A stretch of 64,000 bases of DNA from Eledone cirrhosa. Its lineage: Eukaryota. Shown piece after piece: positions 1,035 to 36,359 of this stretch (the stretch's first letter is position 1; each line of letters begins with the position of its first letter). The notes beneath the pieces were generated by a model. That model made no database searches. It saw nothing but the letters and a program-made list of their open reading frames with translations, and was not told where the DNA came from. The DNA lies in the NCBI GenBank assembly GCA_964016885.1, contig OZ024755.1, positions 21,018,001 to 21,082,000 on the forward strand, written 5' to 3'. The position numbers were made by a program, and so were the translations under genes.

Positions 1035-1092
1035 ATTCTAGCTGTCTGATGAGGTCATAGCTGTTGTCACCGAAATATATATAACAGCGAAT
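1035..1092 (+). ncRNA. Type I hammerhead ribozyme motif (family E)
   Basis: attc-ta-gctgt CTGATGA ggt...acc GAAA TATATAT-A acagc-gaat. Stem I gctgt/acagc plus attc/gaat around a 2-nt bulge. Stem II closed by ggt/acc. Palindromic stem III ATATATAT. Predicted AUA cleavage after 1083. Confidence 0.75.
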
Positions 1093-8035: not shown

Positions 8036-8085
<50 letters not shown>

Positions 8086-8087
<2 letters not shown>

Positions 8088-8494
8088 AGATAAATCTACC
8101 AAAATATAAGGTAGTGTCCAATCCGTATGAAGAACTCAATGTAATCCAAATATCATGAAAAGAGAAGAAGCATTCAAAAATTTTCGATAAAAATCATAGG
8201 AAAACAGAGTCAAGATAAATTAATAAAAACAACGAAATAAAAACAAAGAACAAGTTCCTTATATTAAAAAATTCATCATTTTACGATCGTTTCTGGGATG
8301 TATATGTGTGTTGGTATATATATCATTTCTGAGGACGGCATGTATATGTGAAGGTATGTATATTTCCTCTGATAATTTGTAATATTTTTACATAGATCTA
8401 TATGATACACACACATACATCCCAGAAACGATCGCAAAATGAATTTTTTAATATAAGGAACTTGTTCTTTGTTTTTATTTCATTGTTTTTATTA

Positions 8495-8500
<6 letters not shown>
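8086..8500 (-). mobile_element. Penelope-like/retrozyme-like terminus, family B, with inverted duplication
   Basis: Inverted arms 8215-8310 and ~8410-8500, HHR core on plus, 3' tail 8086-8215 on minus, (TA)n on both sides. Confidence 0.7.
8323..8442 (+). ncRNA. Long-stem-II hammerhead (family B), probably inactive copy
   Basis: tcattt CTGAGGA ... GAAACGATCG-C-A aaatga. The conserved U16.1 is C in this copy. Confidence 0.65.
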
Positions 8501-8561
<61 letters not shown>

Positions 8562-8562
<1 letters not shown>

Positions 8563-8698
8563 GTTATTCCGGGTTGAATCGGAGGTAACCACAGTAAGTA
8601 AGGTACTCAATACATAGCAGAGTATAACAGTTTTAATATAGATGAGATTCTACAGGACTAGAACTGTTTCATTCATTAGAAATCATCAGGAATCTCAT
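8562..8698 (-). mobile_element. Family A element: HHR plus 3' tail between (TA)n tracts
   Basis: Reverse complement of 35526-35660, flanked by TA repeats. Confidence 0.75.
8642..8698 (-). ncRNA. Type I hammerhead ribozyme (family A)
   Basis: Minus strand: atgagattc CTGATGA t-ttc-taat-gaa-t GAA ACAG ttctagtc CTGT-A gaatctcat. Perfect 9-bp stem I, 4-bp stem III, GUA triplet. Confidence 0.85.
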
Positions 8699-8860
8699 AT
8701 ATATATATATTCATTCCACTTTGAAAGTTCATTGTAACTACATATCTAAGTAGTTGGATGCGAATTAATTTTGATAAAAATAATGAAATAATCAAAAATT
8801 AGCGGTCCAAGACTTTGGATTATGGTGTTTTTTTATATTTTTCTAATTTTTTAGTAATTT

Positions 8861-8927
<67 letters not shown>

Positions 8928-9097
8928 AAGTTGATAAAACAACAGATATTTATTTAAAGTTCGAATGTGGTTTATTATATATCCAGAATAGCGAGAGCTA
9001 TTGGTATACTTCCAGTCATCTTAAATTTAAATCATAGAACATATATGGTTTGGCTACATATACGAATACGACTAGTTGGTGGCTACACGCACACACG

Positions 9098-9250
9098 TGG
9101 AAGATTCGAAACCTTGACGGCTGAGCTCCTGCCATTTCAACAGCTGTTGAAACAGCAGGGGCTCAGCCGTCGGGATCCCGAATCTTCCATATTACCCCAA
9201 GTATCGAGTACTCTGATGAATAATGGTCTAACTGGTTTTTACTACATCCA
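9098..9250 (+). mobile_element. Family C-related fold-back palindrome (9098-9189) plus 3' tail
   Basis: tggaagattcg...ttcaacag|ctgttgaa...cgaatcttcca. Contains a GAAAC...GTC 3' half-hammerhead and a gtatcgagtac tail motif. Confidence 0.65.
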
Positions 9251-9284
9251 TTGCAAGCAGGGAAAAGCGGACGTAAAATGATGA

Positions 9285-9338
<54 letters not shown>

Positions 9339-9341
<3 letters not shown>

Positions 9342-9530
9342 GATAAATCTACCAAGAGTTTACGGTAGTGTCCAATCCGTATGAAGAACTCAATGTAATC
9401 CGGATATCATGGAAAGAAGAGATGCAATGAAAAATCACTTTCGGTGAAAGATAAACGGAATACAGAGTCAAGATAAAATATTTAAAAAATAATGAATAAA
9501 ACAATGAAACAGTTCCTTATATTAAACAAA
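9339..9530 (-). mobile_element. Diverged family B 3' tail
   Basis: gtagataaatctacc...ggtagtgtccaatccgtatgaagaactcaatgtaatcc matches 8086-8260 and abuts (TA)n. Confidence 0.75.
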
Positions 9531-24282: not shown

Positions 24283-24646
24283 ATATATAATATATAAGAT
24301 CAAAAGATGGTTAAAAGAGTTCCATGTATATATATATATATATATAATATATATATATAAGATCAAAAGATGGTTAAAAGAGTTCCATGTATATATATAT
24401 ATCATAATCTATAATATATATATAAACACACAGTCCACGGTGTAATGTGGCCGTGTAGGTAACACGGTAAAAACCTCCCAGTCCACACTGTAAACATGGT
24501 TGGTGTTAGGAAGGGCATCCAGCCGTAGAAAATCTGCCAGACAGTCCTGAGCAAGACAACCAATCTTGCCTCAAGTGGGACAATTCCCGTCCAGACCCAT
24601 GCTAGCATGGAAAATGGACGTTAAACGATGATGATGATGATGATTA

Positions 24647-24946: not shown

Positions 24947-24977
<31 letters not shown>

Positions 24978-24978
<1 letters not shown>

Positions 24979-25161
24979 ACGAAGGAAATGTGGTAAGGAA
25001 CCAGGTGGACCATAACGCACCAAAGTACTCAATACTTAGGGTAGTAGAGTGGGTAATAGGAACAAGTAAGACCCCGACGGCTGAGCTCAAGCCGTTTCGA
25101 CGGCTAATTCAGAATTAGCCATCGAAACGGCTTGAGCTCAGCCGTCGGGGTCTTACTTCTT

Positions 25162-25166
<5 letters not shown>
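24978..25166 (-). mobile_element. Family C element: fold-back palindrome (25056-25166) plus 3' tail, flanked by (TA)n
   Basis: 55-bp arms centred on 25111. Each arm has GAA-ACGGCT-loop-AGCCGT-C, the 3' half of a hammerhead. Tail motif attgagtac on minus. Confidence 0.75.
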
Positions 25167-31397: not shown

Positions 31398-31632
31398 TGT
31401 TCTGCACCTGCCCAATGAACGACACTCGAAAACAGTGATGAACTGGACTCCACCTGGTGGCAAACGGAAGCAGGGTTGCCCCAGGAGCACCTGGCAACAA
31501 ATGTTTCAAAAAGACCTAATGGCAGCCAACATCACTTGGCATGGATTCGAAAAAGCCGCCGCTGATTGTGACCATTGGTGACTACTTACTGCTCGATGCA
31601 CCGAAAGGAACGGAAGAACTTAAGACTAAGAA
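31398..31632 (+). mobile_element. Second RTE-family LINE 3' end
   Basis: Encodes ...VMNWTPPGGKRKQGCPRSTWQQMFQKDL..., the G.R..GRP..TW motif. Confidence 0.75.
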
Positions 31633-31645
31633 GACGTATATATAT

Positions 31646-32300
31646 CATCATCATCATCATCATCATCATTTTACGTCCGCTTTTCCCTGCTTGCAAGGGT
31701 GGGACGGGTCTTATTCAGCACAGGATCTCTCCACTCGTCACGGTCCCTCGTCATCTCCACCGTGAGCTTCAATGATCTGAGGTCTGTTCTCACCACCTCC
31801 GCCCATGTTTTTCGTGGTCTACCTCTACCACGTCTTCCTTCAACTGGCATTTCCTGGCACTTCTTCACCCATCGGTCATCCTCCATGCGCATCACATGTC
31901 CATACCACCTCAGTCTCCTCTCCCGTACACTACATTCTATCCCTCTCAGACACAGTTTCTCTCTCAACACATTTATGCTGGGTCGTTCACGCACATTTAC
32001 ACTGCACATCCAACGGAGCATGCTTGCCTCATTTCTCTCCAGCCGTCGCATATCTTCTGCGGTAGCTGCCCATGTCTCACTACCATGCAGCATCGCGCTC
32101 CTCACACAGGCATCATACAACCGGCCTTTCGTACGCAGGGAGAAACCCTTCTTCGTCAACAGAGGAAGCAGCTCCCTAAACTTCTTCCAACCCGTCCTTA
32201 TTCTAGATACTATGGCCTCGGAACACCCTCCTCCCATGCTAATCTGATCTCCTAGGTACCGGAAGCTATCCACCACTTCTATAGCGCCCTCTCGCATTTG
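31646..32300 (-). mobile_element. Young 5'-truncated RTE-clade LINE with open ORF C-terminus
   Basis: ORF IEVVDSFRYLG...AMLHGSETW...RLRWYGHVMRM...GRRGRGRPRKTW is uninterrupted. (GAT)n tail, inserted in (TA)n. Confidence 0.93.
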
Positions 32301-33462
32301 AAAAATGTGTCTATCATATATATATAATGTGTCTATCATATATATATATATATATATATTGGTAAACGGAATAGAAAATGCTGACAAATTGTTCACAGTT
32401 GAAAAATGGTTTAATTAGGAATAAAAGAGTATTAGTGATTGTATGGGTTAGTATTCAGTTGTGGTTTTAAGTTTTTAAGTTTTTACCGGTTGCGCATTTC
32501 TAAATGCTTTTCAAAAATAATTTTGAGATAGAGTGTCCGTGCTGTTTGCTCTGATCTGATTAGTTTTGGGAATTCTACCTGTTTTTATGTTAAAAAAGTG
32601 GCTCCAGCGTTACTTTGGTGTTGCAAAATTTCTTGTGGTCAAAACAATTTTGATTGGTCGGTAGAGGTCATGTGAGTGTAAAAAATTGATTTTGCGCCAA
32701 GTCTTTTTATGTTAAAAATATATATATATATATATATATATACAAATTTTAGTACAGCATTAACGAAGCTTTTGGCTGCGGCTAAGCTAATGAATGCAGA
32801 TTCGAAATGCAGCTTAGCACTCAATGGAGAATAATGCCCCAGAGTTATAACAATACATTTAGACAGCTTTGCAAATCAAATATAGCGACCGACAGTCCAG
32901 CCGCTTTGCCATAGCAACGAAAAAAACTGAACTCAGGAAAAGATTTTGACTGACCTGGACCATCACGTGGACATAGAATGCAACACATAACGCATAACAT
33001 ATAGCATACAATATACATCACATATAACATACAACATCCACGCTAGGTTTCTGTAAATCCGACTAATTCCGCTTACGGGGGTCTGCAAGTTAATGGCCTT
33101 TGACGACAGAACAAAGGATTTACTTCGTCAACAAGTCTTGCGTTCTATAGCCTCGACGGGTGTGTTTTCTAGCATTAATTTTCGCTATAGACACATGGTT
33201 TTCCCAAAGGGAGCTAACCCCCGTTTTAGCGGTCAATTCGAAATTTGGGACAAAGGAATGAAATTCCCTTTGACAAACCGAATTATACGTCTTCTTAGTC
33301 TTAAGTTCTTCTACCTCATCCCCTGATGGCTTATATATTCATCTACTACTACCAACTTAAGGATCTATACTGCTCTTCCCTATTCTTAGTATTGGTCAAC
33401 CTCAACCTGGTTATACAACATTACTTATTCATATGTATGTTTTTTTGTATTCTTCAATAAAC

Positions 33463-33611
33463 AAAACTCATTATTTCTGAAGATGGTGGGTAGTGAAGAC
33501 ATATGTATTTTTTCTTACTATGATAATTTGTAATATATTTTACATAGATCAATAATTGAATGGGCATTCGGAGAGCTACCCCTCAGAAACGATCGTAAAA
33601 TAATGAGTTTT
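33463..33611 (+). ncRNA. Long-stem-II type I hammerhead (family B variant)
   Basis: aaaactcattattt CTGAAGA tggtgggtag...ctacccctca GAA ACGATCGT-A aaataatgagtttt. Perfect 14-bp stem I, palindromic stem III, GUA cleavage after 33597. Confidence 0.85.
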
Positions 33612-33652
33612 ACTATGAATTAACCGTTTTTTGTTTAATTTCATTGTTTTAA

Positions 33653-33691
<39 letters not shown>

Positions 33692-33693
<2 letters not shown>

Positions 33694-33830
33694 CTTCAAC
33701 AGGACTAGAATTGTTTCATTCAAATGAAACAATTCTAGTCCTGTAGAAGTTATTGCTATACTCTACCAATATATTGAGTACCTTTCTCAACTGTGGTTAC
33801 CTGCCAACACAACTCGGGAATCTATACATT
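33692..33830 (+). mobile_element. Family A variant: short fold-back (33692-33751) plus 3' tail
   Basis: acaggactagaattgtttcatt|ca|aatgaaacaattctagtcctgt, then attgagtacc...tgtggttacc. CTGATGA is absent. Confidence 0.75.
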
Positions 33831-33982
33831 AATATATATATATATATATATATATAATGTAGGAGGTGAGTTTTATTGTAGTACAATAAAGCAATGCAGA
33901 TATCGGATAAGAAGCACTCTACAGTTTGTGGGACTGGAGTATGCATAATATAAGATCAAAAGATGGTTAAAGGAGTTCCATA

Positions 33983-34053
33983 TATTTTATTATGCGCATT
34001 TCAAAAACAAACATCATCAAGCAATAATATTTGTGTTTTCATCAGATAAAACA
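33983..34053 (-). ncRNA. Type I hammerhead (family D), minus-strand copy
   Basis: Reverse complement of 34175-34245. Confidence 0.8.
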
Positions 34054-34174
34054 GGAGAACATGATATGAAGGCTAAAAAAACACTTGTTGATCGTGCAGT
34101 TTTAAATCAACATATGTTGATTTAAAACTGCACTATCAACAAGTGTTTTTTTTAGCCTTCATATCATGTTCTCC

Positions 34175-34245
34175 TGTTTTATCTGATGAAAACACAAATA
34201 TTATTGCTTGATGATGTTTGTTTTTGAAATGCGCATAATAAAATA
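34175..34245 (+). ncRNA. Type I hammerhead (family D)
   Basis: tgttttat CTGATGA aaacacaaatattatt..gatgatgtttgttttt GAA ATGCGCAT-A ataaaata. Stem I 8 bp, AU/GU-rich stem II, palindromic stem III, AUA triplet. Confidence 0.8.
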
Positions 34246-34275
34246 TATGGAACTTCTTTAACCATCTTTTGATCT

Positions 34276-34331
<56 letters not shown>

Positions 34332-34383
34332 TAATAAAAACAATGAAATAGACACAAAGAACAAGTTCCTTATATTAAAAAAT

Positions 34384-34511
34384 TCATCATTTTACGATCG
34401 TTTCAGGGATGTATATGTGGGTTGGTATGTATATCATATGTAAAAATATTACAAATTATCAGAGGAAATATGCATACCTTCACATAAACATGCCGTCCTC
34501 AGAAATGATGA
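34384..34511 (-). ncRNA. Long-stem-II hammerhead (family B)
   Basis: Minus strand: tcatcattt CTGAGGA cggcatg...catccct GAA ACGATCGT-A aaatgatga. Stem I is 9 bp. Confidence 0.8.
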
Positions 34512-34585
34512 GATGTGTTTATTGAAAAAAACAAAGAATTAATATAAAGGGTCTGTTTGGGAACAGGTTTTGAATTGACCATATC

Positions 34586-34642
<57 letters not shown>

Positions 34643-34643
34643 C

Positions 34644-34684
<41 letters not shown>

Positions 34685-35423
34685 CTACATATATATATAT
34701 ATATTTATATATATATATATATATATATATAACTCACTGTAAATGAGGTTGGTGTTAGGAGGGGCATCCAGCTGTAGAAAACAAGCCAAAATCAGTTCTG
34801 TATGTGCAAGACATGGTCACCTGACCTAGCATTGCCCACAACAGGACAACTCGTCTAACCCATGTTAGCATGGAAAAATGGACATAACACAGTGATGATG
34901 ATAATGATATATGTGTGCGCATATATACAATACAGATACATATGTACGCACACACACATATATATATATCCTTTAGCATTTATCAATAGCGTACACACTC
35001 ATATCACTTAGTCACATTTCACTTGACTAAACACAACAAAATAAAAGATATGATAGGCCATATCCAAATGATAGATTTTCTATGAAAGTGTTGGTGTTCA
35101 ATGGCAAAATATCTATTGAACAGACTGCTGCAGTGATAGCATGGCACCAAGTATCTTTATAAGAGTGTGTAGTGTGTATACTTAACAAACAGTTCATCAC
35201 CTGCTAGATAATTAATCAAGTTATTTAGGTAATGAGTTATTGACCTGCTGGATCACAACCAGAGATCTATGAAACTGTCATTTGAAATTCTTACCCTACT
35301 CTCTTTTCTCTCATCTTTGGTGCTACTCACTATAAACTTAGTTTATTATGCTATATATAGCTGTATATATCATCATCATCATCATCATCATCATCGTTTA
35401 ACGTCCATATTCCACGCTTGGAT

Positions 35424-35465
<42 letters not shown>

Positions 35466-35468
<3 letters not shown>

Positions 35469-35658
35469 TTTTAATATAGATGAGATTCTACAGGACTAGA
35501 ACTGTTTCATTCTTTAGAAATCATCAGATTCCTGATGATTTCTAAAGAATGAAACAGTTCTAGTCCTGTAGAATCTCATCTATATTAAAACTTTTATACT
35601 CTGCTATGTATTGAGTACCTTACTTACTGTGGTTACCTCCGATTCAACCCGGAATAAC

Positions 35659-35660
<2 letters not shown>
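35466..35660 (+). mobile_element. Family A element with 62-bp-arm fold-back (35466-35593) plus tail
   Basis: Arms separated by attc (35528-35531). Tail attgagtacc...ccggaataacgt-(AT)n. Confidence 0.85.
35526..35576 (+). ncRNA. Type I hammerhead (family A)
   Basis: agattc CTGATGA tttctaaagaat GAA ACAG ttctagtc CTGT-A gaatct. Confidence 0.85.
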
Positions 35661-35692
<32 letters not shown>

Positions 35693-35730
35693 TTACTGTT
35701 TAATGTCTATGCTAGTATAGGTTGCGTGTT

Positions 35731-35774
<44 letters not shown>

Positions 35775-35880
35775 AAAAAGTATGACCCCGACGGCAGAGC
35801 TCAAGCCGTTTCGACGGCTATTTCTGGACTAATAAAAACAATGAAATAAACACAAAGAACAAGTTCCTTATATTAAAAAA

Positions 35881-36012
35881 ATCATTTTACGATCGTTTCT
35901 GGGATGTATATGTGTGTTGGTATGTATATCATATAGATCTATGTAAAAATATTACAAATTATCAGAGGAAATATACATACCTTCACATATACATGCCATC
36001 CTCAGAAATGAT
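35881..36012 (-). ncRNA. Long-stem-II hammerhead (family B)
   Basis: Minus strand: atcattt CTGAGGA tgg-c-atgtatatgtg..ggtatgtatat ... atatacatacc..cacatatacat-c-cca GAA ACGATCGT-A aaatgat. Confidence 0.85.
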
Positions 36013-36197
36013 GAGATGTGTTTATTGAAACAAAACAAAGAATTAATATTATACACACATATATATATATACAGAGAGCGAGGGAGAGAGAAATAATTGT
36101 TTCTACTTTTGGAACAAGGCCAGCAATTACCCAGTACATTACTGGTACTTTATTTTATCGACCCTGTAAGGATGAAAGGCAAAGTTAACCTCGGCGG

Positions 36198-36252
<55 letters not shown>

Positions 36253-36359
36253 CAGGACCCCAATGGCTGAGCTCCTGCCATTTCAACAGCTCGATCCAAA
36301 TTTTTCATGTTACTCTCTCTACTGCCCCAAGTATTGGTATTTACCACTTCCATTCTGAT

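Follow-up and report, generated by a model that had tools for sequence, protein, structure and literature searches.

Hammerhead-bearing ends of Penelope-like elements, probably accumulated in TA repeats of the Eledone cirrhosa genome

The DNA analysed here is a stretch of 64,000 nt from Eledone cirrhosa (assembly GCA_964016885.1, contig OZ024755.1, positions 21,018,001 to 21,082,000 of the forward strand), called the window, to which unprefixed coordinates refer. At 33463-36300, a first-pass annotation had described a nest of six complete type I hammerhead ribozyme (HHR) folds plus partial cores, separated by (TA)n tracts, and had ascribed them to several unrelated families of ribozyme-bearing retroelements. 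The nest is made of short pieces, termed stubs, which lie solo or as two head-to-head arms and which we read as copies of the pseudo-long terminal repeats (pLTRs) of Penelope-like elements (PLEs). Labelled by family, its main insertions and folds are as follows.

33312..33661, + strand: family A stub, remnant of the 3′-untranslated region plus pLTR, with its short (tail-less) end at (TA)16
33463..33611, + strand: family A type I HHR; stem I of 14 bp, CUGAAGA, stem II domain of 102 nt, stem III palindrome ACGAUCGU; predicted cut after 33597
33690..33832, arms on both strands: family C2 head-to-head stub; both arms begin just 5′ of GAAAC and lack CUGANGA; tail on the + arm
33854..34283, arms on both strands: family B insertion of two head-to-head arms; tail of ~90 nt on the - arm (33854-34116), none on the + arm (34111-34283)
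33983..34053, - strand: family B HHR of the left arm; stem III palindrome AUGCGCAU, triplet AUA; strict descriptor
34175..34245, + strand: family B HHR of the right arm; predicted cut after 34237; strict descriptor
34329..34581, - strand: family A2 stub, short end; HHR at 34384-34509 with intact core and mismatched stem II base
35461..35661, arms on both strands: family C1 head-to-head insertion; - arm 35461-35527, + arm 35525-35661, tailed
35526..35576, + strand: family C1 HHR; U.U at the stem II base, longer stem III; predicted cut after 35570; strict descriptor
35770..35832, - strand: family D1 stub, the HHR 3′ half (GAAAC-stem III-GUC-stem I strand), starting from the TTAGTC hotspot, short end
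35830..36049, - strand: family A2 stub, short end; HHR fold at 35881-36012
36241..36292, - strand: D-type (D2) HHR 3′ half, terminating at (TA)23

A strict type I descriptor (CUGANGA, stem II, GAAA, stem III, NUH and stem I of at least 5 bp) matched five of the six folds, at 33463-33611 (+), 33983-34053 (-), 34175-34245 (+), 35526-35576 (+) and 35881-36012 (-). Within 33400-36300, where these five matches lie, 300 dinucleotide shuffles averaged 0.003-0.007 matches and never reached five. The sixth fold, 34384-34509 (-), has an intact core, a GUA triplet and a stem I of 7 bp; it fails the strict filter because two of its first five stem II pairs are mismatched, and counts as a hammerhead only under relaxed settings. 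The remainder of the window holds a single further strict match, 1041-1088 (+), a complete type I fold of a fifth family with stem III AUAUAUAU and relatives in L062, L193 and L246 (L numbers denote stretches of the same genome). In an Rfam scan of the window, no hammerhead family was found among the best 150 of 216 rows, only microsatellite-driven miRNA noise.

The closing pair G10.1:C11.1 occurs in none of the six nest folds (U-A, A-U, A-U, C.U, U.U and U-A). This pair is usual rather than invariant, and its absence lowers the expected cleavage rate, not the fold. Stem III of A/A2 and B is a short palindrome, worth 0 kcal/mol as a hairpin and about -10 kcal/mol between two copies, while that of C and D is longer and partly palindromic; the nest hammerheads are predicted to act as dimers, as described for other PLE hammerheads (PMC4209133). 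Monomer minimum free energy folds often miss the hammerhead shape, as is expected from the weak stem III, and were counted as evidence neither way. Conservation was examined across 16 folds of family B and the B-related ‘G' families, whose AUAUAU-type stem III folds are the commonest complete ones in the random sample described below (stretches L163, L171, L172, L176, L178, L196, L199, L211, L218, L221 and L222). The core is constant except at N7, five of the six stem II pairs change on both sides and 97.9% of cells pair, with GC at the closing pair in 2 of the 16, both of G type. None of 500 shuffles reached the cell count or the score, 81 of 500 reached the changed-pair count, and, the 16 folds being related sequences, these figures are not probabilities. 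Cores are therefore conserved and stem II covaries, where the first-pass annotation had counted a lack of both against its proposal.

Self-comparison reduced the six folds to three lineages: A (33463) with A2 (34384 and 35881), B (33983 and 34175) and C (35526). The two B folds, 98% identical, are the two arms of a single insertion, and the two A2 folds are 92% identical to each other and each 74% identical to the A fold. The partial cores proved to be genuine truncated copies, of which 33692 belongs to C and 35795 and 36255 add a fourth lineage, D. In long D copies the fold is complete but its core deviates: D1 has U3-A8, and most D4 copies have a C3.A8 mismatch (CUGAGAAG, in 20 of 28 long D copies), which likely weakens the D4 hammerhead. 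Separation of the modules by (TA)n holds for most neighbours, the exception being D1 and A2, which directly abut at ~35830.

Dispersed copies were sought across the assembly (3.0 Gb in 1796 contigs), and identities among the best 40 scored were 91-95% for A, 95-98% for A2, 98-99% for B and 99-100% for C1. Each lineage was found to have a coding parent in this genome, linking the modules to open reading frames (ORFs) with reverse transcriptase (RT) and GIY-YIG endonuclease (EN) domains. The B pLTR, in a form identical to 33854..34283 beside intact ORFs, lies at both ends of an 821-aa RT + GIY-YIG ORF in seven of eight fetched loci (the upstream copy is inverted in L106), and 15 of 150 scored B matches have the 821-aa frame open, that is, at least 15 open copies. 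A and A2 lie 3′ of a GIY-YIG ORF on the same strand: modules like 33312..33661 in L011, L024, L126, L127, L305 and L306, with RT5 to EN preceding the pLTR in the latter two, and A2 modules in L138, L151 and L152, with the EN part only. The C1 pLTR lies directly 5′ of a 759-aa RT-EN ORF in L304, and in L308 D4 pLTRs lie on both sides of a Hydra-type ORF interrupted by one stop. An RT fragment next to C1 in L054 was rejected as the C parent, being from another Hydra-type family, and a supposed full B element (C2:269252736/269256487) turned out to be a local duplication without an ORF. The modules are hence ribozyme-bearing retroelement ends of several families, lying at (TA)n and clustered, as had been proposed.

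The Hydra clade (Craig et al. 2021, PMC8557442) is defined by motifs, carries canonical HHRs and inserts into (TA)n, and the supplement lists Hydra-1_Obim from Octopus bimaculoides. [quoted passage not shown] Among the lineage proteins, which contain YRDD and whose RT-EN parts are 36-48% identical to one another, DKT was read in B, C and D, where the RW motif is RWT, RWR and RWR (RWK in the L113 family). The CxCX5C linker was found by pattern in A, B and C, in D in L242 and L251 (its last C is replaced in L308) and in A2 in L133. Between GIY and YIG, A, B and D have one cysteine and C has extra cysteines but no CxxC, so that the CCHH cysteine pair is missing, and CxxC..E and CxH near the end were seen in B, C, D and the A copies L121 and L126. 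The Neptune/Nematis/Naiad combination of a CX2-5CxxC linker with CCHH is absent in A, B, C and D and present in a control, an unrelated L143 ORF. A Naiad reading, prompted by the (TA)n bias, was rejected because EN is C-terminal and the HHRs are canonical, and a Neptune reading was excluded by the linker definitions (CxCX5C here).

We are highly confident, on the basis of sequence, that the nest modules are pLTR stubs of four Hydra-type PLE lineages, A/A2, B, C and D. Two points weigh against this assignment: the A/A2 N-terminus was not recovered, so that DKT and RW were read in B, C and D only; and the Hydra call rests on motifs, the reference sequences having been compared by eye as supplement text. 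Since the four lineages share the Hydra motifs, the RT-EN identity and a tail motif, their description as unrelated families is not borne out. The tail motif, similar to TTGAGTAC, is found in each of the four lineages, 43-58 nt from the long end, and occurs at 35594-35612 of the window, and a similar GTATTGAGCAC closes the consensus printed immediately before Hydra-1_Obim in the supplement of PMC8557442; it is a candidate protein-binding or RT-start signal. That the families are uncatalogued may hold for individual ones (Repbase and Dfam lay outside the search), but published work already covers the clade, with its HHRs and (TA)n preference, and Hydra-1_Obim. By eye, the Hydra-1_Obim row of File S2 matches none of the nest folds; units here are ~3.5-3.7 kb, against ‘generally <3 kb' for the clade (PMC8557442). 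In Pfam, no match was found for the 821-aa and a 234-aa protein, and a 927-aa protein gave a sub-threshold GIY-YIG hit (E 0.09). A protein search, with 8000 candidates scored, returned 25 homologs at 31-42% identity, the only named one carrying an uninformative label from Argonauta hians.

Other PLEs were encountered alongside. L113-L116 (for example G000:C5:35075500-35081500) contain a further Hydra-type family with open frames of 927-979 aa and a U3-A8 hammerhead in its pLTRs. The family A ORFs (L305:1355-3541 and L306:1614-3626) have long Asn/Thr/His-rich inserts between RT and EN, which resemble the N-rich inserts of Adineta Penelopes (PMC3846280). GIY-YIG ORFs with CX2-5CxxC linkers, of Neptune or Naiad type, lie near Hydra stubs in L143:364-819 and L046:3-731, so other PLE clades share these regions.

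The frequency of such insertions was determined in a random sample of 80 stretches of 10 kb, with positions drawn from 26 large contigs of approximate lengths and small scaffolds left out. In these, 28 folds satisfied the strict descriptor, while three shuffles gave 2, 0 and 3. This likely corresponds to ~98,000 folds genome-wide (Poisson range 63,000-145,000, wider given the clustering), or ~33 per Mb. A library of element ends, for which this window and the random set had themselves supplied part of the sequences, identified 109 insertions in the sample; they cover 2.1% of bases, which extrapolates to ~4 × 10^5 stubs genome-wide. Leaving aside those at stretch ends, 105 insertions remain, and 91 of them have (TA)4+ no more than 15 nt away, where random placement would give 22%. 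The number of insertions in a 10-kb stretch is overdispersed (variance/mean 2.5) and correlates with that of TA tracts (rho 0.69). Of the 67 gaps between neighbours, 35 are at most 300 nt, whereas permutations gave 9.5 (18 at most in 500 permutations). The proposed association with TA sites is thus borne out, the stubs being at (TA)n and clustered throughout the genome.

The nest holds seven merged insertions in 3 kb (eight by hand), and the densest of 1200 overlapping random 3-kb windows holds six. This slight excess, and the long hairpin RNA that head-to-head pairs would yield, are what might suggest that the nest serves the host as a functional cluster of ribozymes under selection, located for instance in an intron. 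We consider that extremely improbable: clustering is genome-wide, the nest copies are ~91-100% identical to dispersed family members, their orientations are mixed, and the density comparison favours the nest through a library partly made from it. Because clustering occurs throughout the random sample, the nest is the upper tail of a genome-wide habit and an ordinary locus. The hammerhead density of the genome itself is unusually high. The axolotl genome is about ten times larger than this one. Reported counts are 126,247 hammerhead motifs in axolotl (PMC7229834) and ~9,000 in Xenopus tropicalis (PMC4209133).

The ends of the stubs were positioned relative to C3 of the hammerhead core; hotspot counts come from the random sample, and a larger set is partly selected, with short arms dropped. 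Two fixed 3′ ends were found per family (B, +98 and +184-189; D, +105 and +184; C, ~+53-66 and +129; A2, +181 and +323-329), the long end being extended by what separates pLTR from ORF. In D, each of the 12 distinct head-to-head pairs combines one long with one short end. At the 5′ side, 39 of 55 D arms start at +41..+52 (the A of TTAGTC is at +45), 18 of 23 C arms at -14..+4, and 3 of 7 B arms at -70..-67, with 18 of 86 B arms near -70 in the larger set. Within the nest, the B arms of 33854..34283 join at CATATG, 70 nt before the core, which is the hotspot of that family; in 35461..35661 the C1 - arm, of short end, begins at C3 and lacks the 5′ strand of stem I, and the junction again coincides with the family hotspot. 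Of 37 long C copies, drawn from two subfamilies that have unlike spacers, 35 carry a TATAAA box 30-31 nt before the A of the hotspot, and stem I of the C1 fold 35526..35576 starts at the inferred RNA +1. TTAGTC in D and TCAGCT in C resemble what we take to be the initiator consensus. Public contigs show a ~25-fold step in summed depth at the D hotspot, with loose ends at L251 1813-1814; they are from one sample, possibly the source of the assembly, and do not measure copy number, and those from two other organisms were too sparse to be of use.

The sharp 5′ hotspots and the TATA spacing in C suggest that the stubs are likely cDNAs running from two internal RT starts to the 5′ end of the element RNA. 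That priming often falls near that end, so that short cDNAs run off at the transcription start, we regard as about an even bet, and several observations pull the other way. The start sites are putative, read from the DNA ends of stubs. A/A2 has no 5′ hotspot in 8 random arms or in the larger set, B has no TATA box at -30 of its hotspot, and D has only a weak TATA-like TATT(C/T)ATT; the C hotspot can also be taken for a 3′ splice site, being a CAG that follows a pyrimidine tract. The arms of one D pair differ less than those of different insertions (median 2 versus 5 mismatches in 43 nt), a likeness also expected from fold-back copying or reuse of one RNA.

A rival reading of the same elements is that the stubs are ordinary 5′-truncated copies made from the 3′ pLTR, with hotspots produced by RT stalling or cDNA fold-back at RNA structure or small palindromes, or by a splice acceptor located where the ribozyme begins on its 5′ side. 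Precedents are at hand: PLEs are heavily 5′-truncated with inverted copies and their junction palindromes have been read as self-priming (PMC3846280), a Drosophila virilis intron ends at helix I (PMC4209133), and hotspots here are palindromes (CATATG as that of B and AGCT as that of C3). We nevertheless hold this explanation to be doubtful, though a real contender, because D arms begin at the top of the 3′ strand of stem II, beyond where RT would meet the hairpin, and D junctions lack the natural 5′ strand and loop. Many D arms, solo ones included, begin at the A of AG, which an exon following AG would exclude; the TATA spacing is conserved in C; and in the pair L165 8212/8249 the arms differ at 12 of 43 nt.

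Few stub ends fall at the predicted ribozyme cut site. In B, 1 of 86 arms starts exactly at the cut site (confounded by TA microhomology), and 2 of 44 A2 arms start within 2 nt of it; none does so within 5 nt in C or D. The arms starting at or at most 2 nt from a predicted cut (L163:6260-6305, L219:3900-4141 and L141:225-420) are too few and too AT-rich to serve as evidence of cleavage. This bears on the retrozyme option raised in the first-pass annotation and on the related idea that short palindromic stubs would be self-propagating, non-autonomous elements of SINE or retrozyme type, transcribed, cut by their HHRs, perhaps circularized and re-inserted as a unit. Stubs do far outnumber coding copies (by depth contrast, a weak measure), many C1 copies share one junction (in a search that selected for the junction of this window), and retrozymes have been proposed to derive from PLEs (bioRxiv 10.64898/2026.07.22.740005). 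Like non-LTR retrozymes, the stubs have type I HHRs, are non-coding and reach high copy number; retrozymes, however, are head-to-tail tandem units of 150-450 bp that give circular RNA, whereas these are solo or head-to-head ends of coding elements (PMC7229834; bioRxiv 10.64898/2026.07.22.740005). Among the Tandem Repeats Finder rows covering both nests of the window there is no head-to-tail HHR array. With tandem units missing from the nest and a coding parent for every lineage, the option is unsupported; junctions differing from copy to copy in D and B, the loss of half the ribozyme from most D stubs and from C2, and the lack of a pile-up at the cut site make it unlikely. A separate observation is that three C1 pLTRs lie in the same orientation ~1.1 kb apart in L264 (479, 1576 and 2655, -), possibly a tandem, retrozyme-like non-autonomous unit.

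Taken as a whole, the nest is probably the result of eight short pLTR insertions of four Hydra-type PLE lineages accumulated in TA repeats, and, given that these elements target such repeats, the insertions likely landed one after another. In the proposed sequence of events, the GIY-YIG nuclease would cut both strands of (TA)n, and each DNA end would prime RT from either of two sites within the element RNA, by analogy with an Anolis PLE in vitro. Where priming falls on the pLTR copy near the 5′ end of the RNA, the cDNA, once 60-260 nt long, would run off its template at the transcription start, and the resulting pair of short cDNAs would then be joined head to head. Every insertion would leave TA on both flanks, for which reason nests probably enlarge. 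Stub formation likely does not require ribozyme cleavage.

Several of these steps have counterparts in known systems. Poseidon PAc of Anolis uses two internal RT starts in vitro that define an optional tail (Frangieh et al. 2024, PMC11167929); its enzyme cuts AT-rich DNA on both strands and inserts in vitro without HHR cleavage. Two 3′ ends and an optional tail are likewise seen in every family here, but PAc is of another clade and its tails are 30-40 nt, against ~70-145 nt. Adineta vaga Penelope (Arkhipova et al. 2013, PMC3846280) shares the head-to-head inverted pLTR, the one-end tail and a putative TATA and initiator in the pLTR; self-priming on an antisense template was invoked for its junction palindromes, and recombination or deletion for its solo pLTRs, and its copy number is low, unlike that of the present stubs. 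The D. virilis Penelope promoter is internal and TATA-less (PMC2377424). The pLTR hammerheads of Cervera & de la Pena (2014, PMC4209133) are similarly of type I, with a weak palindromic stem III predicted to need a dimer, and are mostly solo motifs from truncated PLEs with nearby opposite-strand pairs; the U3-A8 core reported there for Schistosoma PLEs occurs here in D1 and the L113/L114 family. Unlike them, the present ones have a stem II domain of ~100 nt in A, no G10.1:C11.1 in six folds, C3.A8 in most long D4 copies and ~33 folds per Mb. PMC8557442 describes a small number of further Hydra families, as against the 4 × 10^5 stubs estimated here in one genome. An annotation of Octopus vulgaris repeats lists 31 Penelope-like families with recent activity and 893 SINE families without classification, in a main text in which ‘ribozyme' does not occur (PMC13282606). 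A literature search covering few subscription papers returned no report of octopus hammerhead counts or of PLE stubs ending at the transcription start.

The families appear new, the clade already known. Whether the commonest retrotransposition product of the Hydra clade here is a strong-stop-like stub, formed when priming on the 5′ pLTR occurs at each of the two target ends and the cDNAs run off at the capped start of the RNA and are joined head to head, seems to us evenly balanced. If so, several hundred thousand stubs would record the transcription start and the two RT start sites of each family, and head-to-head PLE pLTRs would be explained without antisense self-priming; D, the most abundant lineage, would spread though its stubs lack half the ribozyme. 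If the estimate of ~33 folds per Mb is right, this genome would be among the densest in hammerheads reported. The origin of PLE inverted terminal repeats and the role of PLE hammerheads are open questions on which this genome bears, and the model of two primers and a start site is testable here because of the young families (B) and the many natural, sharp-ended insertion products. Stubs amount to ~2% of the genome and could easily be classed by repeat annotation as unknown SINEs or miniature inverted-repeat transposable elements.

A second nest, at 8086-9530, had been described as holding the same families; the lineages do recur (A2, C and D pieces), but only one fold is intact. Its insertions, and one outside the nests, are as follows.

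8085..8497, arms on both strands: A2 head-to-head insertion; tailed - arm without core, + arm (8322, +) with GUA changed to GCA
8560..8698, - strand: C1 solo arm, tailed, with the intact fold 8645-8698
9098..9245, arms on both strands: D-type head-to-head pair of HHR 3′ halves
9332..9530, - strand: A-type end piece plus tail, without core
24977..25166, arms on both strands: head-to-head stub of family D4, lying in neither nest; one end long, the other short

Elsewhere, 24283-24392 comprises two direct copies of the extreme B end (~40-50 nt) in a TA tract, starting 5 nt past the predicted cut site. Two multi-copy SINE-like repeats lie within the main nest (34732-34912 and 36092-36199), with many more copies in the window. 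On the - strand, 31630-32414 is the 3′ part of a LINE reverse transcriptase ORF, presumably RTE-like from its motifs, with copies in L015, L045 and L063.

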